Assembly (NCBI GenBank): GCA_964396025.1
Contig: CAYNBT010000001.1
Location: 3,129-66,169, forward strand
Length of the DNA stretch: 63,041 nucleotides
From: an uncultured Candidatus Saccharibacteria bacterium
GTDB taxonomy: Bacteria; Patescibacteriota; WWE3; UBA101185; UBA10185
Direction: 5' to 3'
Part shown: piece after piece, positions 1,066 through 15,056 of the stretch
Numbering within the stretch: the first letter of the stretch is position 1
Layout of the letters: every line of letters starts with the position of its first letter
The notes under the pieces: generated by a model
The model's input: the letters and a program-made list of their open reading frames with translations, nothing else
The model's database searches: none
What the model was told of the DNA's origin: nothing
Program-made: the position numbers and the translations under genes

Positions 1066-1908
1066 ATGAATGCTAATCTCACCGAAGCCCCACGACCTGA
1101 GCTAGAAACCCCTCACGGCTTTGAATCGCTATTTCAAGCCCCAAACAACGAACTGCCATCTAACATTAAAACAGTTCTTGCCAAGGCACCTTCAGAGATC
1201 AAAGCTATTATAGTTGCGCCCTTGGTGAGAATGGAAACCACGCTTACCACCAGCGCAGACAAATTACACCCCACTGTACTAGAAAACTTCAAAAAACAAT
1301 ATGGAGTAGGTATGGAAGCTGTGGCCTTTTTTGATGGATTTTGTGAAAGCGCCAACGGCGTGGGCAAATACGAACTCAGAACCGAAACCGATCCCAATGG
1401 CGGAATCGACATCTTTATGCGCCCGTGGAAAGAAGGCGTAGCATGGGGCAAGATTGGAGAAGACAATGTAGACGAGGTGCAAATCCGAATCCGCACCGGC
1501 GAGAACACTCAAAATTCCAAAGATGCCTACACTCCAATGCAGTTGAATTTTCGGTTTTTGCAGTATGAACACGGTAAAGCCGAAGAAATCACATCACTAA
1601 GAGTCGATATGCACAACAGAGAAAATGCTGAGATTCAAGTTGATGCAATTGTTGGAGGCGACATGATGGACCGAAAGCATGAGGCTGTAAGGTCAATGAA
1701 CAATGGAGACAAAGAGGAGAACTTTAGGGCACTGCAAGCAGCTTTTTTGTTAAATTTCTCAGAGAGATTCCTGCTAAGCAAAGGCGAAGATGACAAGTTT
1801 GACATTAGGGGAGGCATTCAAGTTGATAAATCATCACGTCCACACCTTGAAACACTAGCTAAAGAACTGAACAAGGCACAAAACTTCTTGGATTCATTGA
1901 AGTCCTAA
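1066..1908 (+). CDS. hypothetical protein (280 aa)
   Basis: Long ORF with an ATG start and no recognisable motifs. By eye it is GC-richer than the core genes. Confidence 0.6.
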   Translation: MNANLTEAPRPELETPHGFESLFQAPNNELPSNIKTVLAKAPSEIKAIIVAPLVRMETTLTTSADKLHPTVLENFKKQYGVGMEAVAFFDGFCESANGVGKYELRTETDPNGGIDIFMRPWKEGVAWGKIGEDNVDEVQIRIRTGENTQNSKDAYTPMQLNFRFLQYEHGKAEEITSLRVDMHNRENAEIQVDAIVGGDMMDRKHEAVRSMNNGDKEENFRALQAAFLLNFSERFLLSKGEDDKFDIRGGIQVDKSSRPHLETLAKELNKAQNFLDSLKS

Positions 1909-3890
1909 AGGTCTTTCACCCTTAACAGTGTTGTGTTATCGTCGCCGGCTACATACGTAGTAAGTGCTCGCAAGGCAACTCCAGTATCAAAACCATACTT
2001 TGTTTTTTCCGAAGTACCAATAACAGCATATTCAACATTGTACTTTTTTAGCAGGTAGGTAACTTCAATCAGTGACGTGCTAGTATAAATTTTTTCTACA
2101 TCCCCCATTCTGTTTGCAATTGGCTCCCATTCCCCTCTCCAACCTAGTTCGTGCTCGGTCCAACCTATTACAGTAGGCAACCCTGTATAGGAAGAAACAA
2201 TCGAATCCATGGAGTATGGCCTTCCGGGGGCCTCAAGCAAAATCGGTTGTCCTTCTACATTTTCATTAATCCAAGCTATCACTGATTTTGCACCAATGTC
2301 TTTTTCCTTCAAATATTGTGAACCATCCAAACCCTTAAACACATATTTTGGTCCAATAATATAACGAACACTTGTAACCGAATACGCAAAAACAAACCCC
2401 AATAAAATCAAAACAGGAGAAATACTTAATACAAGATGTAGAGGTCGCTTAAATGCCTGACTGGCCCGAACAAAACAATATGCACCAACTATAGTTAAGA
2501 TTATCCATGCCTGATACCAAATCTTGAACACAGTATTGGCACGATAGTAGGGCGGGTTCAGTTTGTAGTAAATGTCCTTTACAAAAAATGTTTCCGGAAG
2601 AAAAACTAATAACATCCCAAAAAAGATCAAAAAGAGCACGAATTTATTGGTTTTATGAAAACTGTTCTTTACTCCTGTGATAAGGAAAAAAACTACTACC
2701 ACTGCAAAAAACCCAAACATCTTAAAAATAGCCAAAAGGTCATTTTTGGGCCATGTGAAACCTACGCCACCAGATGGGGGCGAAAAGTTAAGATAGAAGG
2801 GAAGGTAAAGCAAAATTGAGAATGCCACCAACAGGGATCCGTAGATTACGGATTTCTTTAAAACTATCTTGTTATCAAACTGCCGTGAAAGTACACTTAA
2901 AACCAATACACCAAGAACAGGCAAGTAGATAAACCAGTCCCAACTATTAGTAGCTCCAAGTGCACCAAAGGATAAAGGTAAAAAAAGCCATTTTTTATCA
3001 AAATCTGCGGAATGCGACGAGTAAATACTAAAACACAGAGCTAAAAACAATAGCACATATGGAATGTTTAAAATGTGTGCGTGCAAATCTCCAATCAAAA
3101 AGCTGTAGGCAGGAAATTCATTTATTGTGTTAGGAATTAAACTTCGAGCCTGCGCATAAAAATAGTTATCTGCTTGCATGACTACTTTGTAATAAAAGAA
3201 GTCAAGGTTTCCCCCAATCAACAAAACAAGAGATGACACCACAGCTGCTATGTATTTGTGTGTAAGGTGATAAATTATAGAAAAAGCAGCAGTACCAACC
3301 ATAGCAAAAAGTGTTGCAACATAAAGATTGTAAAAAACGGCAGAATCTATGCCGCTCAATTGATTTAGTATAGAAACCCCTAAATGACCAAAATAGTAAT
3401 AATTAATCTCAAAACCACTAAACCACACATCTTGTGGTGGAATAGACTCAGAACGATTTAGCCCATTTATAATGGCAAAATCCATAAACTTCTCAATTCC
3501 TTCAATTTGTGGCTGCGCTCCTCTAAACGCAAGCATTGCTACAAAAAGAAGCGCAAACAATAGTTCTTCTTTTACAAATATTTTCAGTTCATCTTTAGTG
3601 ATTTTGGTGTTACTTTGATAAAAAAAGGCGTAATTTACAAAAACTATTATAAGTGTACATATAACAAGTGCAAAAATACCAAATCGAATTTTGAGCAGAT
3701 AAGACAAGTTCAGAATAACGTAAAACCAGTAAAAAATGTTTAATGCTAAAAAGGAAATTGCCAATTGAAATATTATTTTTGCAAACGGATAACCTTTATC
3801 CCTAAATCCTGAGAATAAAGCTCTAGTTAAAGGCAGGCACAAAACACCAAGTACAATTAAAAACAGATAATATACTAAAGCAATTACCAT
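1905..3890 (-). CDS. DUF2298 / 'YYY' multi-pass membrane protein (putative GT-C-like glycosyltransferase)
   Basis: More than 12 predicted TM helices, the hallmark 'FEINYYYFGHLG' motif, and a soluble C-terminal domain. Last gene of the 10180->1905 operon. Confidence 0.7.
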   Translation of the reverse strand: MVIALVYYLFLIVLGVLCLPLTRALFSGFRDKGYPFAKIIFQLAISFLALNIFYWFYVILNLSYLLKIRFGIFALVICTLIIVFVNYAFFYQSNTKITKDELKIFVKEELLFALLFVAMLAFRGAQPQIEGIEKFMDFAIINGLNRSESIPPQDVWFSGFEINYYYFGHLGVSILNQLSGIDSAVFYNLYVATLFAMVGTAAFSIIYHLTHKYIAAVVSSLVLLIGGNLDFFYYKVVMQADNYFYAQARSLIPNTINEFPAYSFLIGDLHAHILNIPYVLLFLALCFSIYSSHSADFDKKWLFLPLSFGALGATNSWDWFIYLPVLGVLVLSVLSRQFDNKIVLKKSVIYGSLLVAFSILLYLPFYLNFSPPSGGVGFTWPKNDLLAIFKMFGFFAVVVVFFLITGVKNSFHKTNKFVLFLIFFGMLLVFLPETFFVKDIYYKLNPPYYRANTVFKIWYQAWIILTIVGAYCFVRASQAFKRPLHLVLSISPVLILLGFVFAYSVTSVRYIIGPKYVFKGLDGSQYLKEKDIGAKSVIAWINENVEGQPILLEAPGRPYSMDSIVSSYTGLPTVIGWTEHELGWRGEWEPIANRMGDVEKIYTSTSLIEVTYLLKKYNVEYAVIGTSEKTKYGFDTGVALRALTTYVAGDDNTTLLRVKDL

Positions 3891-3906
3891 AAGTTAATCA
3901 CTAAAT

Positions 3907-5688
3907 TCAAGGTGTAAAAGTGATAGTAATTTTGGCATCAGAAATGAATTTTCTTGCATAAGCACCACCTGTACCCTTTGCAATGATGCTGAGATTGTTA
4001 CCTGTGGACCAATCAGAACGATCGGTCACTGCACTGATCAACGATTTTACATCTTCGAGTGAGTACCATACTCCTGAGTTCCATGATGTATTGCTGGAGT
4101 GACCTATTTTATCTGACGATAAGGCGCGTGCCCCAGGCAAGGCAGACGAAGAAAATGAGTTGCTACTACTTGAATTCTCAGAGAATAGATCAAGATCTAT
4201 GCTTATCCACTGAGTGCTAGCCGATTTTAGCTCTAGTTTTGCCGAATTTATTGTGGCTCCTTTTGGTATGCTTACATTGGCAAAACGCATTCCTAGATAG
4301 CTTGATGTTTCACTAGCTCCATTTCCAATCCAAGGCGGTGTTGAACCAGAACTACCATCCTGACTATAAAGCTGAGCGTTCAATGTGATAGTCTGTGCAG
4401 TAGGAACAGGTGTCGGAGTTGCCGTTGGAGTTGGTGTAGGAGTTGGCGTAGCCGTGGGCGTAGGCGTAGGTGTTGGAGTTGGTGTTGCAGTTATACTCGG
4501 GGTAGGGGTTGGCGTTGGGGTAGGTGTAGGTGTTACGACTACTGTATTTATTGCAAAATCATCCACTAAAGCTACACCATTAAAACCAAAGTTAACTAGG
4601 CCGAAGTAGACCGGTGCAGAAAGATTCTGTGCGGTAAATGACTTTGTCACTTTTAATTCAACCCAATCTTTTGATGCTTTTTTAGCAGCCTGTGCTTGTC
4701 CATAATCTGCTGTACCAAGATCTTCATACTTACCTACTCTTAGAGAAGGCTTGCCCCAACCCGTACCCGAAGTAGTAACCTTTACCCACGACGAGAATGT
4801 ATAAGATACGTTTGGTTTGAGCAAAGCTGCAATATCTTGTGAAACATAGGCATTAGTGTTTGTTAGCTTTGCGGAGTTGTTGCCCGTTCTGCCGGAAGTG
4901 TTAAGGGATGTGCCTGAATTAACTTTCCAACCACTCAATGAGCCGGATTCAAAACCAGCATTTAGCAAGGCAGTTGGGGTCGGAGTTGGAGCAGGAGTGC
5001 CTGAAGGGGTAGGCGTAGGCGTTGGAGTAGTTGTGGGAGTAGGCGTTGGAGTCGGTGTAGGAGCTAAAACTGCAACTATTGAATTTGTAACTGAATAGAG
5101 AGCGTCAGAAGGAGAATCTGCCACAGACACATTACTATCCGTAGTCGCATCAGGACTAAATTGTATGGTCAGTGGAGTGTTTCCTGCCAAAACCGGTCTA
5201 AAAACTAATGTGGCTATCTGTAACTGAGAATTTCCTGCCAGAGGGGCTGTAACAGCCTGCGCGGTTGCATCATAAGCAAGCAGACTAAAATCTATGAAAC
5301 CTGTAGAGTTTGCATTTGATACTGCTTGTGTGAGTGGTGGCGTATATGTAACTGTCGTTGGTAGATTAGTTGAAGGCAATATTTGTTCCAAAACTAAGTT
5401 TTGAGTTGAAAATTGAATTCTGGAATCCAACCCAACAACTGAACGACCATTTGGATTTAGAATTAAGGGCACATTAAAACTTTTGCCTAAATCAGCAGAG
5501 ATGTTTTGGGGCAAAATCAAAGAGCTTCCAGATGTTAAACCAAGAATCAAACCATTACCTGTACTAAAGTACAAAGAAAAAGAAAAAGAAAGTAAGGCAC
5601 TAAACATGGTTAATAGCCTAAACTCACTGTTGTTTGTAATTAGTGTTTTGAGTGTTTGATTATTTGATAAACTGTCACGTAAACTCAT
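3907..5688 (-). CDS. membrane-anchored surface protein: cohesin-like domain + PT linker + CBM4/9/22-like module + PT linker + unknown C-terminal domain
   Basis: N-terminal hydrophobic anchor. Residues ~58-205 follow a cohesin-like beta-sandwich pattern ('GKSFNVPLILNPNGRSVVGLDSRIQF...LTIQF'). A CBM-like start 'GFESGSLSGWKV' is present, along with two (TP)n linkers. Confidence 0.6.
   Translation of the reverse strand: MSLRDSLSNNQTLKTLITNNSEFRLLTMFSALLSFSFSLYFSTGNGLILGLTSGSSLILPQNISADLGKSFNVPLILNPNGRSVVGLDSRIQFSTQNLVLEQILPSTNLPTTVTYTPPLTQAVSNANSTGFIDFSLLAYDATAQAVTAPLAGNSQLQIATLVFRPVLAGNTPLTIQFSPDATTDSNVSVADSPSDALYSVTNSIVAVLAPTPTPTPTPTTTPTPTPTPSGTPAPTPTPTALLNAGFESGSLSGWKVNSGTSLNTSGRTGNNSAKLTNTNAYVSQDIAALLKPNVSYTFSSWVKVTTSGTGWGKPSLRVGKYEDLGTADYGQAQAAKKASKDWVELKVTKSFTAQNLSAPVYFGLVNFGFNGVALVDDFAINTVVVTPTPTPTPTPTPSITATPTPTPTPTPTATPTPTPTPTATPTPVPTAQTITLNAQLYSQDGSSGSTPPWIGNGASETSSYLGMRFANVSIPKGATINSAKLELKSASTQWISIDLDLFSENSSSSNSFSSSALPGARALSSDKIGHSSNTSWNSGVWYSLEDVKSLISAVTDRSDWSTGNNLSIIAKGTGGAYARKFISDAKITITFTP
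4399..4536 (-). repeat. imperfect (ACN-CCN)n repeat encoding PT linker 2 of the 593-aa protein
   Basis: Residues 385-430 read '[45 protein letters not shown]'. Confidence 0.9.
4972..5064 (-). repeat. imperfect repeat encoding PT linker 1 of the 593-aa protein
   Basis: Residues 209-239 read '[31 protein letters not shown]'. Confidence 0.9.
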
Positions 5689-5689
5689 A

Positions 5690-8600
5690 TTAATTGCCTG
5701 TAAGGTTCTTTAAATAACTACCAACATTTCCAAAGAAAGATGATTCGACTTTTATCTGAGAAGGATCGGTCACAATGATCTCAGGAATCTTTCCATCTGG
5801 CCAATATAGAGATACTGTTCCATTTACTTCAACTGTCTTGCCTTTAAGACTTTCAATGTCATAGTTGAAATCTTGAGCATCTTGAGCAAAGATTCTAACT
5901 AAGAACGTTGAATGGGGATCTTCTGTGAATCCAAGATAATATGCTTTTGGAGTATTGTCTTCAACTACCTTAACAGTTCCTTTTAGAATAACATTCTGAT
6001 TTAAATAGTCTGCTGCTTGATCCCAAGAAATAACTGTAGGAGACTTAACAGTTTGGGCACCAAGTACAGAAGACATGGCGGGCGCTGTACTCATAGCTAA
6101 GTTATCATTTGACGATGCTGTAGGATTGCCATTCTCCAAAGCGATGATAGCACCGTCATTTGTCTTGACTAAGACAAGCCCGTCGGAGACAACAACAAAG
6201 GGTGTAGAACCAGAATTAGGATTGTACGAATTGTGATATTCATAAAAACCAGCAGGAAATGCTCTGGAGTCACCATAGCCATACAAACCGTTGCTACAAT
6301 ATCTTGTGCTTGAGTTGAACGGGCAGTTAGAAGGCCCGTAATTAAACAGCCCATCACCTCCTGGATAAATTGCCGGGTTGCATTGGGTATTTGAAGAATC
6401 GCAGTAGACCTGTCTCCAAATAATGTTTGGTGCTGCTACTGTCTTGATCGGATTCATATACGTATTACCAACTGCAGAACCACGATCAGTGATGGTAAAA
6501 GCCTGACTGGACAACCAGTGATTATGGAATAAGGTGTTTCCTGAACCCGTCATGTTCATCATTTCATCCGTTTGCATGTCGTGATAGTAAGCAGGGCTTG
6601 GGGGAGTTTGATAGTTTCCGGCATCAGCCCATTGAACAAATCTCATATCGCCGCCTGTATAACCTGAAACCGTGGAATTATCTAAAACCATTTCTCCAAC
6701 GCTCGCGTCCTCTCTTCCATCGCACCAGCTATCCCTTGCACAAATTTGCTGATTTCTAAATGGCACGTATGCAACATTCTTGTTTCCTATCTGTCTAACT
6801 ATTGGTTGAGGCCCCATAGGTAGATAGCCACCATCGCCTGCACCACCATTTCCAGCGTTAGGTGCGGTTGCATAGGCATCGTTACCATCATCAAGCCTTA
6901 AAGCATACAATGCTTGCTGGCGCTTAGAATTATCAGTTAAGAATGTTCTTGCTGCTGCATTTTCTGTAGGGAATGTGCCTCCAGCACCTGGTCCGTCCCA
7001 AAGTGTCTGCCAATCTAAGCGATATCTTATAAAAACTATGCCTTGAGCGTCAGCTATAACAGGCCAACCTTCTTCAGCCTGAGCTACCTCTTTATTTGAA
7101 GTACCTGGATCACCATAAGTTCGATCTGTAGGTTTGTTTGGAGCCCACTTTGCAGTACCGTCTGTTGCTTTTACTGCATGTACAAATAAGTCTCGCGTGA
7201 CATACACAACAGTATCTCTTGAACTTGAGTATGACGGTGCGGTAGCTGCGGGAGTGCTTGAACCAGCGTATTCCCAATTCTTAGTCATTGTTGATGTGGC
7301 TACAGATACTAAATGCCCATTTGCTGCAGCTACGACTACATTAGCCCCAATTAACAACGGAGCGTGATTAAGAGCACTACCTGTATCAAAACTTGCAACT
7401 GTTGCACCTGTTGAAGCATTTAGTTTATAAATAGAGTTCCCACCTGCAACATATAAATATTCATTTGCATAGGCAGGGGTAGAGTTTATGTTTCCAAGAT
7501 TATTCTTAGACCATAAAACTGTACCATTTACTTTATCGTTACTGTTTTTATCTAGGGCAAACACTGTATTGTTTGCTACCATGTACACTCTGTTACCACC
7601 TGTAATAGGCTGCACAAGATCGGGAACGCTCAGATGAGAGGATTGAGGTTTTCCGTCAGATCCTGCTCCATTCCATTGCCACTTATATTTCCAAGGTGTC
7701 GCAACGGTCTGTTCTGTGTAGTGTGTTCTCTGAGCATTACCTCCAAATTGATTCCAAGAAACAGCGCTACCTGGCAACGGAGTCGGGGTTGGAGATGGGG
7801 TTGGTGTAGGAGTTGCCGTAGGAGTAGGCGCAGGGGTCGGCGTTGGAGTAGGTGTGGGTGTAGCCGTAGGAGTTGGGGTTGGCGTTGCAGTGGGTGTGGG
7901 TGTGGGAATAAAGATGGAAGCTCCATATACGACTGCAAAGTCCAAGCTGTTGATTTTGTTATCTCTATATTGATCTAACGAATTATTGGGAGTTGCATTC
8001 CAATTCGTGATCAGAGAAATTATATCTGCAGAATCTACAAAGCCATCTCCTGTAACGTCACCATCACCGTAGGCACTGGGAGTGGGTGTTGGAGTTGGAG
8101 TCGGAGTTGCTGTAGGTACTGGAGTTGGAGTCGGAGCTGGAGTTGTAGTACCATTAATCAACTTTACTGCAAAATCATTAGAAAGTGCATTCACTGGTAT
8201 ATCTACATTTCCACCAACTGGTGTTACATTTGTAGTGGAGATTTTCTGTCCTGTATAGGTATTCCAAATCTCTAAAGTGTAAGCAGACTGCAACAAATTC
8301 TTTACAGTGACAGTACCAGATACTGCAGCAGTTGAGTTTGCTGAGTTGTACCAAGTGTTATTTCTGTTCTGAATCCAAATGTATGCATTCTTTTTGTCGG
8401 AACTTCTCATTCCATAAGCTCTTAGGACTGGATTTGAAACTGTAAGTGTTTCGCCTGTATAGCCGGGAATCGTATCGGAAGTGCCCATTAGAAATGTGAA
8501 ACTGCTTCCGGCATAATTGACCCCACTAAAATATTCCTTCGCCGCCTTCCTTTGCTCATAGCGTTTTGCTGTGGTTGCTGAATCCTCTTGATCCCAATAC

Positions 8601-10180
8601 CAGTCCAAAGGCGTAGTCCCAAGAGGCGAGAATAACCCAGCCCACATACTGTTATGAAGCATACGAACGCGACCTTCTCCCGATTTTGCAAGAGGATTTA
8701 CTTCATTCCAATTTGCAGTGCCAGCATCAAATTCGCCCCAAATCCACGGCATTTGTCCTTTTCCAGCAGCCCAAGATGTTCCGTCTCCTAATCCAAGCTG
8801 ACTACAATAGGTACTTGAGGCAGGGCTCTTTGTTATATCTCTCAAACACCACGCAGTTCTATATATAAAATTTGCCTCATCATACTTGAGTTCAGCAGGA
8901 GTCTGGCTAAAATCCATCATATAATTGTGATAGTTTGCAATATCAAAAAAACCGGAAGACCAAAACGCAGGGCTGTAAGCTTGAGAACCCTGAGATGTAG
9001 TTCTTAAGTGTTTATAAGGATCGACTTGCAACTGATACTGACTATATGCCTGATAAAATCTGTACTCAGGACTGTTAGGCAGTACGTGGCCGTGTTCGTT
9101 CCAAGCTTCCCATGCTAAAACAGATGGAGAATAACCCCAACGAGCTACTCTATATCTAAAGTTTCTTTTCCAGTAATTTATATGTCTGAGGCTATCAAAT
9201 GCTTGAGGAGAGGAATTCCAGCTTTCATTGTAGGTTGCCCCATCCCAGATCCAGTAAGGATCGCCATGTGAGGTAATTTGAATGTAAACCCCGTTTTTCT
9301 CTGCCGCCTCAATGATTTTATCTTCTTCATAATTACCTCGCTGATTAAGTTGAGTGCCTTTTTGCGTAGTACTTAGATCTACATTGCGATCGACAGGGTT
9401 AAAATCGTAAGGATAGGAATATGCGTCATAATGCCCTTCGGTTGTAAGACCATAACCATCGTTCTGATCCCATATTCTAGTAAAATTGACGCCATTGGCC
9501 CCAAAGAGTGCAAAGGTATTTTCGTAATCCCAGCTCCTCTTGCCGCAGCAAAGCCACCATTGTCGCCCACTACCTACTGGAACAAAGCTAGTGCCATCAT
9601 CAAATTCCAAGAAACGACTATCTTTACTGGAGACTCTTACAAAACCCTTTTGGCTCGAACTAGTAACTGAAAAATTCAAGTCGCCAAAAACAGGATGCCT
9701 AGTACTGCCGGTTTTGTCTTCAACAGTTAGATAGTATTTATAGGTACCGGTTTCGGAAGGCGTGAATCTAACCTTCCATGAATAATTGTTAGTAGGAGTC
9801 ATTGTCTCAGAAGTAGAATAGGAACCTGTTCTCTGAAAATCCTGATAATAAAAAGCCGGAACCTTAAACGTCTTACCGGACGGTGCAGTAAAGTGAGCAT
9901 CAACAGAAATCCCATCTATTCCATAAGGAGAATTCCTGCCGGGATCAGCAGTAGGAGTATCTGATGAGTCATAATAATAATAGGGCAAGATGGAATCTGC
10001 CGGATACGTCTTGGAAATCTGAAAATCCAGTTCATATTTTTTAAATTTTTGCACGGAAGTAGAAGATGATGATATTGACGTTACATAAGGTGTGGATTGA
10101 GCATAAGTAGACTCAGAAACACAGACAGCTAGAAGCAACAACATCAATATAAACAATGATTTGTAAAAAAGTATCCGCAT
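5690..10180 (-). CDS. 1496-aa secreted multidomain protein: Ig-like N-domain + GH5-like (clan GH-A) barrel + dockerin-like module + PQQ/BamB-like beta-propeller + OB-like C-terminal domain
   Basis: Signal peptide '[15 protein letters not shown]'. Candidate acid/base 'AWEAWNEHG' and nucleophile 'WIWGEFDAG'. Dockerin loops '[12 protein letters not shown]' and '[12 protein letters not shown]'. Repeated '[18 protein letters not shown]'-type propeller blades. Two PT linkers. Confidence 0.75.
7775..7906 (-). repeat. imperfect repeat encoding PT linker B (residues 759-802) of the 1496-aa protein
   Basis: '[44 protein letters not shown]'. Confidence 0.9.
8078..8146 (-). repeat. imperfect repeat encoding PT linker A (residues 679-701) of the 1496-aa protein
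   Basis: '[23 protein letters not shown]'. Confidence 0.9.
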
Positions 10181-10189
10181 TCGAGAACA

Positions 10190-10198
10190 ATTTCAGCA
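10190..10198 (-). promoter_or_regulatory. extended -10 (TGcTGAAAT) 9 nt upstream of the ATG at 10180
   Basis: Minus strand reads TGCTGAAAT-tgttctcga-ATG with no SD. Confidence 0.4.
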
Positions 10199-10238
10199 CT
10201 TATGTCTTACGGTGTCAATACATACACAACAAAATATG

Positions 10239-10244
10239 TATAAT
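10239..10244 (+). promoter_or_regulatory. -10 box TATAAT for the 10283 gene (leadered, with SD)
   Basis: TATAAT is followed by a ~38-nt leader containing an AAAGGAG SD. Confidence 0.4.
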
Positions 10245-10282
10245 ATTATAGATAAGTTTATTTATATAAAAGGAGTCTCTAA

Positions 10283-10843
10283 ATGAAAACAAGTTATAAA
10301 TTTCTAGTTTTGCTAATAGTACTTAGTATTGCATTCGCGGGCAATCAAACAAATGCTGAAGAAACCAATCCTCAAAACAGACGTTTGGAAAACATGGAGA
10401 AAAAAGAGGGCAATATGGAAAGACGCTGCGAGCTAATGCAATCAAACATAGAAAAACGAATAGAAATGTACAACCGGCGAAAAGACGTGCATAAAGCTGC
10501 GTATGAACGCTTTTTGACAAAAGTCGAGGAAATAATCGAACGATTAGAAGCTAAGGGTAAAGACACAACGCAAATTGTGCAGGAAGTTGAAGAACTAAAG
10601 GCTTTGATAAAAGAATTTTCAACAAGTGTAGAAACTTCAGTCACAATGCTCGAAGAAGCTAACGATTACAACTGTGGGCAATCAGAAGGCGAATTTAAAA
10701 CGCGAATCCAAGACACCAAAGTGTCTTTTGAAGCAACACGCGAATCCGCCAAGGCTGTAAGAGAGCAAATGAAGATGGTAAAAGAAACAATTCGTGAAGC
10801 TGTAAAGGCAAGAAACACCTCAGAATCAGAAGGGAGCGAGTAA
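10283..10843 (+). CDS. secreted coiled-coil protein (hypothetical)
   Basis: ATG with AAAGGAG SD, signal peptide 'LVLLIVLSIAFAGNQTNA', and an E/K-rich helical remainder. Confidence 0.65.
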   Translation: MKTSYKFLVLLIVLSIAFAGNQTNAEETNPQNRRLENMEKKEGNMERRCELMQSNIEKRIEMYNRRKDVHKAAYERFLTKVEEIIERLEAKGKDTTQIVQEVEELKALIKEFSTSVETSVTMLEEANDYNCGQSEGEFKTRIQDTKVSFEATRESAKAVREQMKMVKETIREAVKARNTSESEGSE

Positions 10844-10844
10844 T

Positions 10845-11006
10845 ATGGAAAAAAAACTTCTCCCAATTCTTATAACTATTACAGTGTTACTTCTACTGGG
10901 CGGGTTCATATACAATAAAAAGTATCTTAGCGGCCCAGACATTGAGAAGGAGTTGGAAACTACATTACAGGAGACTAATCCTGACGATTTTGAATTCGAA
11001 GAATAG
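10845..11006 (+). CDS. 53-aa single-pass membrane protein (below the ORF-track cutoff)
   Basis: Hand-translated as MEKKLLPILITITVLLLLGGFIYNKKYLSGPDIEKELETTLQETNPDDFEFEE. Its ATG lies 1 nt after the upstream TAA, with GGGAG upstream. Confidence 0.4.
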   Translation: MEKKLLPILITITVLLLLGGFIYNKKYLSGPDIEKELETTLQETNPDDFEFEE

Positions 11007-11022
11007 GTAACACTAACAAGTA

Positions 11023-11712
11023 CTACTTTTTGATGAAACTCGAAAGGTAGTATTTGGTTTGCTTTATTTTGTCGGCAATTTTCTCGTGAATGCCTTTCTT
11101 GTTCTCCTTATAAATGTGAATCATAGGAGGCAGGACGGAAGCCATAATAATAACCAATACAATGGGTAGAAGATACTTGTCTACGTCCGGAATCAAACTA
11201 CCTAAAAAGTATCCCGAGAGCATCAAACCAAACACCCACAAAGTTCCACCAATAAAGTTAAAAAACATGAATTTTCTCAAATTCATGTGGCCTACTCCTG
11301 CAACGATTGGAGCAAATGTGCGTACAACAGGCATAAAACGAGCTAATATTATGGCCTTACCACCGTGTTTTTCATATAATTCTTCAGCTTTAATGAGATG
11401 AGCCTTTTTAAAAAGCAAAGAGTCTTCTCGTCTAAACAGTTTCCTGCCCACCTTAGAGCCAAAATGATAACCAACGTTATCTCCTAAAATTGCCGCAATC
11501 CAACTCCCAATCACTAAGGGTAAAATGTCAAAAAAGGCAACGCTTGGTGATGCTAAAAAACCCGCCGTAAAAAGTAAACTGTCGCCCGGTAGAAAAAAAC
11601 CTACTAACAAACCGGATTCAGCAAAGATCACTAAGTAAATTCCAAAATAGCCAATTTGTTCGATAAATGTTCGCAAATCGTGTTCTATAAAGAGAGTTCT
11701 AAAAATTTCCAT
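11023..11712 (-). CDS. dedA: DedA/SNARE-associated family membrane protein
   Basis: 'GLLVGFFLPGDSLLFTAGFLA' and 'GGKAIILARFMPVVRTFAPIVAG' are DedA hallmarks. Confidence 0.8.
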   Translation of the reverse strand: MEIFRTLFIEHDLRTFIEQIGYFGIYLVIFAESGLLVGFFLPGDSLLFTAGFLASPSVAFFDILPLVIGSWIAAILGDNVGYHFGSKVGRKLFRREDSLLFKKAHLIKAEELYEKHGGKAIILARFMPVVRTFAPIVAGVGHMNLRKFMFFNFIGGTLWVFGLMLSGYFLGSLIPDVDKYLLPIVLVIIMASVLPPMIHIYKENKKGIHEKIADKIKQTKYYLSSFIKK

Positions 11713-11718
11713 TACAGA

Positions 11719-11727
11719 ATAGTATCA
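11719..11727 (-). promoter_or_regulatory. extended -10 (TGaTACTAT) 6 nt upstream of the dedA ATG
   Basis: Minus strand reads TGATACTAT-tctgta-ATG with no SD. Confidence 0.5.
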
Positions 11728-11752
11728 CAAAAGTGGAATTGATTAACAGATG

Positions 11753-12463
11753 TTAAGAGTGTTTGGAAAGCTCGTAAAGAGATATTCCAACGGCAATTGA
11801 AACATTCAGTGGATTATTCCCCAACGTCTTAACTCCAAAGCGTTTACCGTTGAATCCATGAGGGGAGAACAAATCATCGGTAAACAAAACAGCATAAGGT
11901 GCTGATATATCAATGTTTGAAGGGTTGTATTTAGAATCAGACGAGAATGAGATGATTTCATGATTCTGAAAAGCATCCAGATAGGCGTCGTAATCCTCAA
12001 AATATTCGAAGTTAACGCTAAAAAGTTCTCCCATCGATGCGCGTATCACTTTGGGATCAAACACATGAACAGATGGCTTTATAATAGCCAAATCATAAAA
12101 CCCAAAAGCAGCCATAGTTCTAATGATTCCACCCATATTTCCCATATCCCTAATGCCGCCCAAAATAATGTGGTTTCTGGTAGGAGAAAGTTTGGTGTCA
12201 TATTTGTCAAACAATCCAACAACCATGGAATTTTCTTTTGGTGAAAGCTTACCAACCATCTTGTCACTAATCTCAAAAGGGATTTTATGTTTTTTACACA
12301 AAGAAACCAATTCTCGAGCTCCCTGATTCTTACTGCTTCGAGTGGAAAAATAGAGTTTTTTTACATATTCTCTTTTATGATGGAGAAGTTCAAGTGTAGG
12401 ACTAACGCCTAAAGTATAGGAAAAATCAAATTTTCTGTTTTGGGTACTGCTATCTTTATGCAT
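11753..12463 (-). CDS. SpoU/TrmH-family RNA 2'-O-methyltransferase
   Basis: 'GNMGGIIRTMAAFG' and C-terminal 'LNVSIAVGISLYEL' SPOUT motifs. Confidence 0.75.
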   Translation of the reverse strand: MHKDSSTQNRKFDFSYTLGVSPTLELLHHKREYVKKLYFSTRSSKNQGARELVSLCKKHKIPFEISDKMVGKLSPKENSMVVGLFDKYDTKLSPTRNHIILGGIRDMGNMGGIIRTMAAFGFYDLAIIKPSVHVFDPKVIRASMGELFSVNFEYFEDYDAYLDAFQNHEIISFSSDSKYNPSNIDISAPYAVLFTDDLFSPHGFNGKRFGVKTLGNNPLNVSIAVGISLYELSKHS

Positions 12464-12474
12464 TTAACAGAAGA

Positions 12475-12897
12475 TTAAGAAGTAGCTTTTGCTTCTTTGA
12501 TCTTTGTAGCGGATTTGCCCTTGCGATCCCTTAGATAGTAAAGTTTAGCTCTTCTTACTTTACCATGCTTGATTATTTCGACTTTAACTATGTTTGGAGA
12601 AAGTAATGGAAAGATTCTTTCTACGCCAACTCCACCAACACCTATTCTTCTAACGGTAAAGGTCTTAGCCTCGCCTGAGCCCTTTTTTGCTATGACTATG
12701 CCCTCATAGGGCTGTACTCTTTCTTTATCGCCTTCGATGATTTTGTAGTGTACTTTTACAGTATCACCTACATTAAAGGTTGGTATCACGCGCTGAACAA
12801 CGGCTGGAGCATCATAGGTTTCATCAACCACAGCAGTGTCTTCAGGTTCTTGTACAGAATCATTATCTTCAGTTGTATTTGTTATTTCTTCAGTCAT
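12475..12897 (-). CDS. rplS: 50S ribosomal protein L19 with acidic N-terminal extension
   Basis: '[33 protein letters not shown]...TFTVRR' L19 core. It is preceded by ~40 acidic residues with no internal ATG. A downstream GTG start cannot be excluded. Confidence 0.85.
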
Positions 12898-12956
12898 AAG
12901 GCTTTTTGGGAATTAACGAAACGAGATTAACAGAAATACAGCAATAATTCAAGTCT

Positions 12957-15056
12957 TTATGCGGTATCTATAGAAACCTCTGCAACTACGTCTATTTTTA
13001 AACCATCCCCTTCACAAGTAATGTTAACCGCATCACCATCCTGAATTTGAGAAGAAATGATCTTACTTGAGATGGTATTTTCGATTTCCCGTTGAATTAG
13101 TCTTCGTAAAGGTCTGGCTCCATACTCTTCACTAAATCCCTTGTCTGCAAGGTAAACTCTGGCTTTGTCATCAACTGATAGACTTATTTTGTGATCAAGA
13201 AGGAGCTTTTGGGTCTTAGCAATCTCCATGTCGGTGATAGCACTGATATCTGCCCTAGTAAGGCTCTTAAAGAAGACTACTTCGTCTATTCTGTTTAAAA
13301 ATTCTGGTTTAAAGCTGTCTTTTAAGATTTTTTCAACTCTTCTTACTGTTTCCTTTTCTGTACGCTCTTTCTGAGCAACAGTGTCCGTATTATTAAAGCC
13401 TATTTCTGCTTGGCGTAGCACTTCAGAACCAACGTTTGAGGTCATAATGATAATGGTGTTCTTAAAATCAACTGCACGGCCTTTGCTGTCTGTGAGCCTA
13501 CCATCTTCCATGATTTGCAGCAGAGTGTTGTAAATATCCGGATGGGCTTTTTCAATCTCGTCTAAAAGAATGATTGAGAAAGGTTTTCGTCTTACAATCT
13601 CGGTAAGTTGCCCACCCTTTTCAAAACCAATGTACCCCGGGGGAGAACCGATCATTTTGCTAACCGAATGCTTTTCCATATACTCACTCATATCAAGACG
13701 TACAAGCATATCTTCATTACCATAAAGAACTTCAGCAAGCGCCTTAGAAAGCTCAGTTTTACCTACTCCTGTAGGACCTAAGAACAAGAATGAGCCTATC
13801 GGTCTCTTGGGATCTTTGAGCCCAGCGCGGGCACGTCTAATAGCCTCGCTAACTAATTTAACGGGTTCGTTTTGATTTACCATGCGCTCGTGGATTCTAT
13901 CTTCCATATGAATTAAACGTTCTTTTTCTTCCATGCTTAATTCCTCCAGAGGAATACCCGTAGCCCTAGAAACCACCTTAACAACAGAATCCTTGGTTAC
14001 ATCACGAACCTCCTCAAGTTTTGTTTTTGTCCAAATATCAATCAGCTCCTTCTTTACTTTTTCTAGTTGACCAAGTTCGGCCTCAAATTTAGTTTTGAGA
14101 TCGGGTTCGGAATTGGATCGAATTTTTTCTTTAACAGCCGCAATATTATCTTCCACTTGTTTGAGATTTTCAGGCTCACGTACTTGAGAAAGTCTCACCA
14201 AAGCCCCAGCCTCATCGATTAAGTCGATTGATTTGTCGGGCTGGAATCGGTCACTAATATACCTGTTTGAAAGTTTCACCGCATAATCAATAGCTTGGTC
14301 TGTTATTTTCACGTGGTGGTGCTTTTCGTAACGCTCCCGTAGACCTTTTATAATAAGCACGGTTTCTTCTGGCGAAGGCTCGTTGACTAATACAGGCTGA
14401 AATCTTCTTTCCAGAGCTGCGTCCTTCTCTATATGTTTTTGATATTCATCTAAAGTTGTTGCTCCAACCATTTGTAATTCGCCTTTTGCTAATGCCGGCT
14501 TGAGTATGTTTGCAGCGTCCATAGCGCCTTCTGCCGAACCTGTCCCAACAACAGTATGCAACTCATCCAAAAACAGAATAATTTGACCCTGAGCGTTTAT
14601 AACCTCATTTATGATGTCTTTGAGACGGCTTTCAAACATACCTCTGTGAGAAGTTCCTGCAATAACCGAAGCTAAATCTAGCGCAAAAACTCTTTTTCCT
14701 CTTAAAGGCTCGGGTACTTGTCCATTGATGATTCTTTGCGCCAAACCTTCTGCAATCGCGGTTTTACCTACACCAGGTTCGCCTATTAAAACAGGATTAT
14801 TTTTTGTTCTACGGGAAAGTATATGAACAACTCGTTCGATTTCATTTTTTCTACCGATTACAGGATCAAGCTTGTCGTTTTTTGCAAGGTCGGTTAGATC
14901 ACGCCCGAATTTATCTAAGATAGAAGTTGATTTGGTTTCTTTTTGAAGTTCGGCATGGCAAACCTCGCAAAGAGCAATATAGACTTGTCGACCGTCGATG
15001 ATTTTAGTTGTAGGAATTGTTGCAGGACGTTGCCCGCATCTTTGGCAGATTACCAT
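12957..15056 (-). CDS. clpE: ClpE-type Hsp100/Clp ATPase (two AAA+ modules, N-terminal zinc ribbon)
   Basis: N-terminal 'CQRCGQ...CEVCH'. Walker A 'GEPGVGKTA' and 'GPTGVGKTE'. 'AEIGFN' candidate ClpP-docking loop. No Clp_N repeat domain. Confidence 0.8.

Follow-up and report, generated by a model that had tools for sequence, protein, structure and literature searches.

In Clostridium (Acetivibrio) thermocellum, single-cohesin surface proteins of the OlpA/OlpC type tether individual dockerin-bearing enzymes. The GH5 beta-mannanase ManDH5 of Dictyoglomus thermophilum (PDB 9gmj, 9gpa, 9gpc-g) stands alone as a 568-residue protein and has no dockerin, propeller or OB tail. In the Saccharibacterium Southlakia epibionticum, SEML1_0315 is a dockerin-domain envelope protein for which host-glycan targeting has been speculated, with neither a cohesin partner nor an enzyme architecture described for it (Wang et al. 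2023, PMC10633639).

The window analysed here, a 63-kb stretch of DNA taken as a whole, carries genes that invite comparison with these systems. Our reading, to which we assign a probability of roughly 0.65, is a two-gene unit of a Patescibacteria (CPR) bacterium in which a secreted GH5-like enzyme docks through its dockerin on the cohesin of a surface-anchored protein, P2. The unit is most likely a one-enzyme relative of the cellulosome.

Organisation of the locus

Three co-directional open reading frames occupy the minus strand at 5690-10180, 3907-5688 and 1905-3890, encoding 1496, 593 and 661 aa.

5690..10180, minus strand: giant gene, 1496 aa; signal peptide, DUF5060/GH-A enzyme, PT linker, dockerin, PT linker, propeller, OB-like tail
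3907..5688, minus strand: P2 gene, 593 aa; N-terminal hydrophobic anchor, cohesin-like domain, PT linker, CBM_4_9, PT linker, DOMX
1905..3890, minus strand: DUF2298 / Chlor_Arch_YYY polytopic membrane protein (P3), 661 aa; Pfam, TIGR03662
10190..10218, minus strand: promoter-like site; TTGACA 10218-10213, 17-nt spacer, TGcTGAAAT 10198-10190; read directly from the sequence

The giant gene and the P2 gene meet at TAA-t-ATG, with a 1-nt spacer, and the P2 and DUF2298 genes are separated by 16 nt between TGA and ATG, so the co-directional trio with 1-nt and 16-nt spacers claimed in the sequence-only reading was found in coordinates and junctions alike. The same reading placed an extended -10 at 10190-10198. 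TGcTGAAAT does lie there, with a perfect TTGACA at a spacing of 17 nt upstream, but the site was missing from the output of a consensus promoter scan, its -10 hexamer having no A at position 2. The giant-gene ATG follows 9 nt downstream and Shine-Dalgarno is absent; if the site acts as a promoter, as its layout suggests, the mRNA would be nearly leaderless.

A predicted GH5-like enzyme

10100..10180, minus strand: predicted Sec signal peptide, residues 1-27 (...STYA/QS); hydrophobic segment
8111..10099, minus strand: glycoside hydrolase unit, residues 28-690; DUF5060 Ig-like domain, (beta/alpha)8 clan GH-A barrel, C-terminal beta-sandwich
9095-9097, minus strand: codon of E362, predicted acid/base residue of the GH-A barrel
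8732-8734, minus strand: codon of E483, predicted nucleophile of the GH-A barrel

Residues 1-28 of the giant protein contain a hydrophobic segment (Kyte-Doolittle maximum 2.62), with probable cleavage at ...STYA/QS. Pfam places DUF5060 at residues 85-152 (33.8 bits, cut-off 27.2), and the barrel carries the motifs AWEAWNEHG from residue 356 and WIWGEFDAG from residue 479. E362, part of the conserved pair N361-E362, is kept in 63 of 63 homologues and E483 in 62 of 63. A PDB sequence search with the hydrolase matched ManDH5 (9gmj/9gpc, E 2.5e-32), the alignment setting the depositor's E303Q mutation site, which is the acid/base residue of ManDH5, against E362. In the AF2 model of the unit (pLDDT 93.2), E362 lies shortly past a beta-strand and E483 within one; the top five Foldseek matches of this model were all ManDH5 (E about 1e-42, target TM-score 0.82), with which it shares a three-domain layout. 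The next structural neighbours, the GH140 apiosidase BT_1012 and 'DUF4038/Apiosidase' proteins (5msy, 8t9w, 3kzs), matched much more weakly (E about 1e-13, query TM-score about 0.45). A barrel of the apiosidase type is often preceded by DUF5060, and a Pfam search of the giant protein gave no Apiosidase hit.

The N-terminal part is most likely a retaining clan GH-A, GH5-like glycosidase. Its domain identities and conserved catalytic residues are established at the level of sequence comparison, bearing out an earlier assignment of GH-A plus dockerin to the 1496-aa protein through DUF5060, both quoted motifs, the ManDH5 match and a Dockerin_1 match above cut-off, and upholding the catalytic Glu pair. 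Identity to ManDH5 is only about 21-25% and the Pfam search of the giant protein returned no Cellulase hit, so the enzyme may differ from ManDH5 in specificity. The substrate is expected to be a beta-linked hexose polymer, such as mannan or glucan, probably drawn from the environment, biofilm or host envelope.

Dockerin, propeller and OB-like tail

7913..8071, minus strand: dockerin module, residues 704-756; Pfam Dockerin_1, PT linkers either side (689-703, 759-801)
6131..7765, minus strand: BamB/PQQ_2-type beta-propeller, residues 806-1350; Pfam PQQ_2, Cys-rich inserts
5693..6070, minus strand: OB-like C-terminal tail, residues 1371-1496; sub-threshold tRNA_anti_2

Dockerin_1 covers residues 707-751 of the giant protein, scoring 25.2 bits and so exceeding the cut-off of 22.9. 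In the family consensus, GNGDVNGDGxVN..D ... DQYxDGxxNxxDF, the second calcium loop is non-canonical: it reads DQY, and N or D would be usual at position 3. The suggested BamB/PQQ-like propeller is corroborated by PQQ_2 at residues 872-1043 (55 bits, Pfam). Its family profile found designed 'Cake' propellers at 1.9e-80, the PQQ-repeat protein 3hxj at 2.3e-29 and BamB at 4e-25, with quinoprotein dehydrogenases reached only at about 1e-8, and nothing points to PQQ binding. Besides the window, 26 fetched loci have the hydrolase fused to or adjacent to a propeller.

For the proposed OB-like tail there is a recurring tRNA_anti_2 match that stays below threshold: in the full giant protein Pfam gives residues 1391-1465 at E 0.016, the isolated domain E 0.0018, still sub-threshold, and the tails of 6 of 8 orthologues match at E<=1. 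A PDB sequence search with the tail had zero matches, and the tail is kept in 7 related loci.

P2, a candidate cohesin and CBM anchor protein

5560..5616, minus strand: P2 hydrophobic segment, residues 25-43; presumed signal-anchor, Kyte-Doolittle
5059..5535, minus strand: cohesin-superfamily domain, P2 residues 52-210; family-profile evidence
4534..4974, minus strand: CBM_4_9, P2 residues 239-385; Pfam, PDB 4xup CBM22 tandem
3910..4395, minus strand: DOMX, P2 residues 432-593; unannotated beta-rich domain named in the present analysis

P2 had been described as membrane-anchored, and a hydrophobic segment does lie at the equivalent place in all ten orthologues and in every one of the 50 top-ranking family members, out of 126, that were inspected at the N-terminus. 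In P2 itself its 19-residue Kyte-Doolittle maximum is only 1.43, a weak value against 1.57-3.17 in the ten orthologues, and because the segment is only moderately hydrophobic, anchoring through it is something we infer.

The cohesin-like domain claimed for P2 holds through its family, though not through a Pfam hit of its own: a search with P2 itself gave no Cohesin hit at E<=1, but 37 of 42 family members matched Pfam Cohesin. The profile built from the 126 homologues of the N-terminal domain matched solved cohesins at E-values from 2.8e-7 (3l8q) to 1e-4, with 2y3n and 1tyj among them. Foldseek also returned cohesins (target TM-score about 0.6), starting from a low-confidence model with a mean pLDDT of 57.6, and this fold evidence is soft because the model is poor. 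Residues 52-210 are accordingly confirmed as a cohesin-superfamily domain only at profile level.

The CBM-type module is substantiated by CBM_4_9 at residues 241-354 (39 bits, cut-off 25.9, Pfam), resembling the CBM22 tandem of PDB 4xup by sequence and by fold. DOMX gave no match in Pfam and none of meaning in PDB, and one of 16 family members matches CBM96, weakly (E 0.0022). The domain is found again in cohesin proteins of related loci, and in Acidobacteria (L035-L037) triple DOMX repeats stand beside homologues of the hydrolase. DOMX is a candidate glycan-binding module.

Linkage and reshuffling across genomes

The two-gene architecture of the window recurs in L006, L007, L008, L010 and L027, while L031 has the gene order reversed. 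A GH-dockerin-propeller fusion, called unusual in the sequence-only reading, is real, but it reappears with the same architecture and length in L006, L008, L010 and L027. Elsewhere the parts are split, as GH / PROP-DOC / COH-DOMX in L002 and as GH / (weak DOC)-PROP-OB / COH-DOMX in L022, and in L028 COH-DOMX-GH forms one ORF, with dockerins on two propeller proteins. Across Patescibacteria relatives, hydrolase, dockerin, propeller, cohesin and DOMX thus stay together while being reshuffled in a complementary manner, and by these comparisons the architecture is a recurrent one of which the window is one member, not a one-off. Independently sampled cohesin-family loci comprise a cohesin protein adjoining a dockerin protein (L086), a single protein bearing cohesin as well as dockerin, not far from a DUF5060-GH (L091), a cohesin-propeller fusion (L090) and cohesin plus DOMX (L088). 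Chloroflexi also have the GH-propeller link; there, the fetched regions contained no cohesin, and a single weak match (L015) is the most that was seen of a dockerin.

These patterns bear on whether the two proteins act together. Outside cellulosomes, modules resembling cohesin or dockerin often lack a proven partner. The dockerin-like segment might be a calcium-binding spacer and P2 a free-standing adhesin or glycan-binding protein, the genes being adjacent through a shared substrate; this agrees with the missing direct Cohesin hit and the non-canonical second loop, but it is unlikely given the significant family-profile match to solved cohesins, the renewed adjacency to dockerin proteins in L086 and L091, and the shifting position of the dockerin. 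The dockerin always sits on a part with no covalent link to the cohesin protein (L002, L028, L031), which argues for real docking. Related genomes supply much of this linkage, part of which could be inherited synteny.

The DUF2298 gene as a variable neighbour

P3 was recognised as the DUF2298 'YYY' polytopic protein it had been taken for (DUF2298 315 bits, Pfam; TIGR03662 Chlor_Arch_YYY 435 bits), with many hydrophobic segments. Among the six loci with sequence downstream of the pair, only the window and L007 have DUF2298 there; L004, L006, L008 and L027 have other genes, and in the split loci it is not in the neighbourhood. The conserved unit is therefore two genes, not the three proposed earlier, and the DUF2298 gene is, judging from these loci, a variable neighbour rather than a conserved member, possibly co-transcribed with the pair.

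Its presence raises an improbable alternative, in which the three genes build or remodel the organism's own envelope glycans, DUF2298 being a membrane glycosyltransferase, acting for instance on PT linkers or on a wall polymer that the GH-propeller protein trims. The co-directional trio with 16 nt between P2 and P3, the adjacency repeated in L007, and the envelope genes that relatives have near the pair (L006 an LCP ligase, L008 a weak GT22-like protein) are in keeping with it, as is membership of DUF2298 in the GT-C glycosyltransferase clan of Pfam. It is opposed by the changing downstream genes, by CBM_4_9 on the anchor, which suggests capture of external polysaccharide, and by P3 having no solved relative by sequence (a PDB sequence search found no match).

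Proposed mechanism

In the preferred two-gene reading, the 1496-aa protein would be exported by Sec. Its retaining GH-A part, with DUF5060, barrel and beta-sandwich laid out as in ManDH5, would take its acid/base residue from N361-E362 and its nucleophile from E483, followed through a PT linker by the calcium-type dockerin, the BamB-like propeller and the OB-like tail, the last two most likely binding substrate or positioning the enzyme. P2 would be held at the cell surface by its N-terminal hydrophobic segment, its single cohesin would capture the dockerin, and CBM_4_9 and DOMX, carried on PT linkers, would hold polysaccharide; glycan would therefore be cut at the cell surface. Both the docking and the surface location of the complex are presumed. 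Such cutting would serve an ultrasmall CPR organism that must scavenge sugars. Of the cell-anchored glycan-processing complex first envisaged, the enzyme-dockerin protein beside a cohesin/CBM protein, linked across genomes, survives, whereas the third gene is no conserved part of it.

The window has a single cohesin-like module and a single dockerin, so a surface tether is favoured over a multi-enzyme cellulosome, and the label of mini-cellulosome fails in that sense. A true cellulosome, a multi-enzyme, scaffoldin-based degrader of plant cell walls or cellulose, could draw on the cohesin, dockerin, CBM and GH-A modules all being there, but is highly improbable: a multi-cohesin scaffoldin is absent from the window, the GH, CBM, cohesin and dockerin modules of the locus have no match elsewhere in it, the ten closest ORFs on the flanks, the only ones annotated, are housekeeping genes, and the best-matching enzyme with a known activity is a mannanase rather than a cellulase.

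Comparison with known systems

A close parallel is the OlpA/OlpC type, which, like the arrangement predicted here, combines a single cohesin on a surface-anchored protein with one dockerin-bearing glycosidase in a cell tether rather than a large complex. The differences are several: an N-terminal hydrophobic segment replaces SLH repeats as anchor, P2 itself bears CBM_4_9 and DOMX, the dockerin is internal, between hydrolase and propeller, the cohesin has diverged too far for Pfam to recognise it directly, and the host is a CPR bacterium. Type II scaffoldin cohesins (A. cellulolyticus ScaB, 3l8q; B. cellulosolvens ScaA, 2y3n/1tyj) are the best profile matches of the P2 N-terminal family, but the window is without the multi-cohesin scaffoldin and enzyme set of those systems. 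BamB/PQQ_2 propellers and archaeal PQQ-repeat 'cell surface proteins' (3hxj, 8pr9) share a strongly matched blade motif, yet the match covers only about the first 200 of 545 propeller residues, the remainder having Cys-rich insertions, and the window propeller is predicted to be extracellular and tied to a glycosidase rather than to outer-membrane assembly. Within Patescibacteria, the giant protein resembles SEML1_0315, by its description, in being a dockerin-bearing surface protein (PMC10633639).

Organization of the locus

Three genes lie head-to-tail on the minus strand, with a promoter-like site 5' of the first.

10218-10213 and 10198-10190, minus strand: promoter-like site read from the sequence, TTGACA, 17-nt spacer, TGcTGAAAT
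5690-10180, minus strand: giant gene, 1496 aa (signal peptide, DUF5060/GH-A glycosidase, dockerin, propeller, OB-like tail)
3907-5688, minus strand: P2 gene, 593 aa (cohesin-like domain, CBM_4_9, and DOMX, our name for the unannotated C-terminal domain, residues 432-593)
1905-3890, minus strand: P3 gene, 661 aa (DUF2298 protein)

A single base separates the stop codon of the giant gene from the ATG of P2, and the P2-P3 gap is 16 nt, so that the ORF coordinates and junction sequence agree with the co-directional genes and 1-nt and 16-nt spacers described in the sequence-only reading. The extended -10 element noted there is present at 10198-10190 and has a perfect -35 partner, TTGACA; the site is missing from the consensus promoter scan list because its -10 hexamer has no A at position 2. 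The ATG of the giant gene lies 9 nt past the -10-like element, with no Shine-Dalgarno sequence (window 10181-10218), and its mRNA, judged from these bases, would be nearly leaderless. Four terminator-like sites were predicted, fewer than the shuffled-sequence mean of 7.2, and every one falls within the giant gene; the same scan returned none between the three genes or after P3.

The flanking genes are of housekeeping type, encoding L19, a SpoU methylase, a VTT-domain protein, a Clp-type ATPase, PolA, and GatB. A 186-aa gene starting at 10283 is transcribed divergently from the giant gene, and a 280-aa ORF without a Pfam match (1066-1908, plus strand) is convergent with P3, overlapping its stop codon by 4 nt. 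Nearly all large ORFs of the window are on the minus strand, GC skew is negative across nearly all of 1-63041 (cumulative skew -2.1), and GC content near P3 is 0.355, below that of neighbouring regions.

P3 matches PF10060 (DUF2298) with 315 bits and TIGR03662 (Chlor_Arch_YYY) with 434.8 bits against a cut-off of 300, and carries the NYYYFGH motif and many hydrophobic segments, which upholds its earlier description as a DUF2298 polytopic membrane protein. PDB sequences gave no match to P3, even with a two-sequence profile. We take DUF2298 to belong to the GT-C glycosyltransferase clan. An explanation in which all three genes form a unit remodelling the cell's own envelope, with P3 as the glycosyltransferase, draws on this assignment and on the co-directional position of P3, 16 nt past P2. 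Relatives speak against it, and against the three-gene unit first proposed: only the window and L007, one of the loci compared from other genomes and contigs, have DUF2298 immediately after the cohesin gene. That position holds an Nramp transporter in L006, an unannotated protein in L027, a small ORF and then a PurF-type amidotransferase gene in L004, and nothing on the same strand in L008. P3 may be co-transcribed here with the giant gene and P2 but is not a conserved member of the cohesin-dockerin system, and the envelope-remodelling unit is the less likely explanation.

Glycosidase unit of the giant protein

Residues 84-414 and 506-674 of the giant protein match PDB 9gmj/9gpc by sequence search (E 2.5e-32), with E362, in the motif AWEAWNEHG, aligned to the glutamate that is changed to glutamine in the depositors' ManDH5 mutant, E303Q. 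The AF2 model of residues 28-690, built from a 63-sequence alignment, reached a pLDDT of 93.2 and a pTM of 0.93. Its best five Foldseek matches are all ManDH5, the GH5 beta-mannanase of Dictyoglomus thermophilum (E about 1e-42, target TM-score 0.82, identity 21%), the E303Q-mannotetraose complex among them; the next neighbours, BVU_0362 and GH140 apiosidases, are far weaker. The GH5 label of this nearest solved relative is its depositors' name, and identity to the window enzyme is about 21-25% only.

N361-E362 is invariant in the homologues (63/63), and E483 is kept in 62/63. In the AF2 model, E362 lies shortly past a beta-strand and E483 inside a strand, a predicted placement that is the clan GH-A arrangement of an Asn-Glu acid/base and a Glu nucleophile. 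The ManDH5 match, the model, and this conservation together support the GH5-like clan GH-A barrel with both glutamates that had been proposed. Pfam Cellulase (PF00150) has no match in the giant protein and was found in a few homologues of the family. Identification of 9gmj as the GH148 enzyme EngU was rejected, since EngU has different motifs (INNEN, VTEYN) and an inserted CBM4. The signal-peptide region is strongly hydrophobic, with an N-terminal Kyte-Doolittle value of 2.62.

Dockerin, propeller and OB-like tail

The dockerin-like module is confirmed by Pfam Dockerin_1 at residues 707-751, with 25.2 bits against a cut-off of 22.9, and is flanked by PT-type linkers at residues 689-703 and 759-801. 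Its first 12-residue calcium loop is canonical; the second, also of 12 residues, has tyrosine at position 3, where Asn or Asp is usual, and this deviation is kept across the CPR family, the consensus of related dockerins being GNGDVNGDGxVNxxD ... DQYxDGxxNxxDF. The PQQ_2/BamB-type propeller occupies residues 806-1350 and scores 55 bits with PF13360 (cut-off 27.6), in line with the earlier call. Against the PDB, its family profile matches designed PQQ-blade propellers (1.9e-80), 3hxj (2.3e-29), and BamB (4e-25), with known blades matched by the first ~200 residues only. Matches to quinoprotein dehydrogenases are short and weak (about 1e-8 over roughly 40-130 residues), for which reason a PQQ dehydrogenase was dropped as a candidate identity.

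The OB-like tail gives a sub-threshold tRNA_anti-type match (E 0.0018, 18.9 bits against a cut-off of 27), has an OB match at E<=1 in 6/8 orthologues, is conserved in seven relatives, and has no match among PDB sequences. An assembly chimera was also considered for the giant ORF and dropped, because four orthologues share the same fusion.

The cohesin-like protein P2

The sole Pfam match in P2 is CBM_4_9 at residues 241-354 (39 bits, cut-off 25.9), which establishes the expected CBM-type module; this middle domain resembles the CBM22 tandem 4xup by sequence and by fold. Cohesin PF00963 was not matched at E<=1 by P2 or by residues 45-210 alone. With residues 45-210 as query, an exhaustive representative search recovered 126 homologues, where word-indexed searches had yielded only 3 and then 8. 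The cohesin-like domain lies at about residues 40-220 in nearly all 126, and an N-terminal hydrophobic segment precedes it in the best 50, which were those inspected. A 42-member family profile matches about 20 solved cohesins, with ScaB 3l8q (E 2.8e-7) at the top, and 37/42 members match PF00963 individually (best 1.3e-10). Structure prediction of P2 from 9 sequences was poor (pLDDT 57.6); Foldseek with this low-confidence model matched the first domain to many cohesins at target TM-scores of 0.55-0.62, a fold resemblance that lends soft support. The cohesin-like sandwich claimed for P2 therefore stands at the level of family profile and fold, and fails as a direct PF00963 match.

N-terminal membrane anchoring of P2 would follow from its family, because its own hydrophobic segment is weak and ranks last in strength in a set of eleven orthologues.

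DOMX, the C-terminal 160 residues of P2, matched nothing meaningful in Pfam or PDB sequences, apart from a weak CBM96 match in 1/16 members, and Foldseek of the P2 model assigned it no fold. It is a candidate new carbohydrate-binding domain. In L035-L037, from Acidobacteria/Vicinamibacterales MAGs, proteins of ~1300-1700 aa with three DOMX repeats lie convergent beside DUF5060-GH homologues, so DOMX travels with this GH family outside CPR too. In L087, a JGI metagenome contig, a 723-aa protein (8001-10172) has two DOMX-like domains (iE 2.7e-10 and 0.015). Its gene comes shortly after a Phage_capsid_4 gene, among small genes arrayed as in a phage, and DOMX may have a further use in a structural or receptor-binding protein of a phage.

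In the 63-kb window there is precisely one cohesin-like module, with one dockerin module and no multi-cohesin scaffoldin. A true multi-enzyme cellulosome would share this pair of module types, yet the single copy of each makes it less likely, and the mini-cellulosome of the sequence-only reading is not supported, within the window, in the multi-enzyme sense.

Module arrangement in related loci

The GH alignment was scanned against one genome per species, giving 80 loci, and six-frame ORFs were searched for each module. Members of the GH family are frequent in both Chloroflexi and Patescibacteria.

Table. Module arrangement in the compared loci (GH, glycosidase; DOC, dockerin; PROP, propeller; OB, OB-like tail; COH, cohesin-like domain; CBM, carbohydrate-binding module).
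Window, L006, L007, L008, L010, L027: GH-DOC-PROP(-OB), then COH-CBM-DOMX
L004: COH-CBM-DOMX as second gene; first gene cut by the contig end
L031: the window's two genes in reverse order
L002: GH, then PROP-DOC, then COH-DOMX
L022: GH, then (weak DOC)-PROP-OB, then COH-DOMX
L028: COH-DOMX-GH in a single ORF (8213-13399); dockerins on two upstream propeller proteins
L024: GH-DOC and two DOC-PROP genes
Chloroflexi: PROP-GH fused or adjacent; dockerin at most one weak match (L015)
L086: cohesin protein that also has a polysaccharide lyase domain and a dockerin, beside a dockerin protein
L088: three consecutive cohesin genes, one with DOMX
L090: anchor-cohesin-propeller (homologous propeller) in one ORF (365-2677)
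L091: cohesin and dockerin in one protein, beside a cohesin-like protein and a DUF5060-GH

The fetched Chloroflexi regions yielded no cohesin. L086, L088, L090, and L091 hold further cohesin-family genes chosen independently of the GH, and these four loci repeat the module pattern; a fifth protein chosen in this way, P0254, is a DOMX protein in a phage-like contig. The fusions in L028 and L090 are 'Rosetta stone' links between modules of the window locus. Across the rearrangements the dockerin resides on a cohesin-less polypeptide, a placement that fits the prediction for a docking pair and that mere synteny does not predict. Independent action of the giant protein and P2 would sit easily with the missing PF00963 match in P2 itself; given this placement, it is less likely than docking. 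The complementary placement of modules across reshuffled loci offers indirect support for the putative calcium-dependent dockerin-cohesin binding.

The MAGs that supplied the nearest loci bear the labels Saccharibacteria, Woesebacteria, Microgenomates, Roizmanbacteria, or 'Patescibacteria group', and the taxonomic placement of the locus follows from such relatives. Among clusters of cohesin-family proteins a single one had a name, 'Patescibacteria group bacterium'. L010, L022, L024, and L031 carry Pseudomonadales or Gammaproteobacteria labels yet show the CPR-type cohesin/dockerin/GH architecture, and these labels probably reflect mis-binning. L001, an ENA contig of 4654 bp, has upstream genes in common with the window and a GH of 96% protein and 84% DNA identity; its GH ORF ends past the first PT linker and the sequence diverges thereafter, which points to a GH variant that stands alone or, alternatively, to an assembly that broke in the repeat. 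In L034, a 1.23-Mb contig of a Roizmanbacteria MAG, seven dockerin-bearing ORFs lie within 21 kb (300-21755) beside a DUF5060-GH; several are paralogues that combine an N-terminal dockerin with a PQQ propeller, and one joins a dockerin to a GH140-like Apiosidase domain and Collagen_bind_2. The part of L034 that was fetched showed no cohesin.

Proposed mechanism and significance

CPR, or Patescibacteria, live with tiny genomes in reliance on other cells, and how they acquire sugars and attach to surfaces is, to our knowledge, little understood. Domain identities, catalytic residues, and the linkage of the modules are shown by the results above, and from them we infer docking, anchoring, surface location, and substrate as follows: a secreted GH-dockerin-propeller-OB enzyme would dock onto the single cohesin of surface-anchored P2, whose CBM_4_9 and DOMX would hold polysaccharide, with the PT linkers giving reach. 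If true, a conserved cohesin/dockerin surface tether would be a concrete glycan-capture mechanism in CPR, and the cohesin-dockerin principle would act as a one-enzyme anchor far outside Clostridia.

The literature searched mentions dockerin proteins of Patescibacteria only in passing and yielded no description of a cohesin partner for them. One Saccharibacterium in cultivation requires a dockerin-domain envelope protein whose role is not known (PMC10633639), so it would be valuable to learn what such proteins bind and do. With less than even confidence, we suggest that Patescibacteria possess a lineage-wide modular surface toolkit, mixed by fusion and fission, with which ultrasmall episymbionts grip and digest host or biofilm glycans, and that the GH-propeller pair, which Chloroflexi share, is a previously unrecognised two-part enzyme. 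The parts of this toolkit may include N-terminally anchored divergent cohesins, the 'DQY'-type dockerin, DUF5060/GH5-like and GH140-like glycosidases, PQQ-like propellers, and glycan-binding DOMX. For enzymologists the leads are a divergent GH5-like clade in which the propeller is an obligatory partner, DOMX itself, and a dockerin subtype whose DQY loop is conserved.

Among known systems, the window system, its domains being read from sequence, would work as do the single-cohesin anchors by which cellulolytic clostridia hold enzymes, and differs from the multi-enzyme cellulosome in having a single cohesin and a single dockerin.
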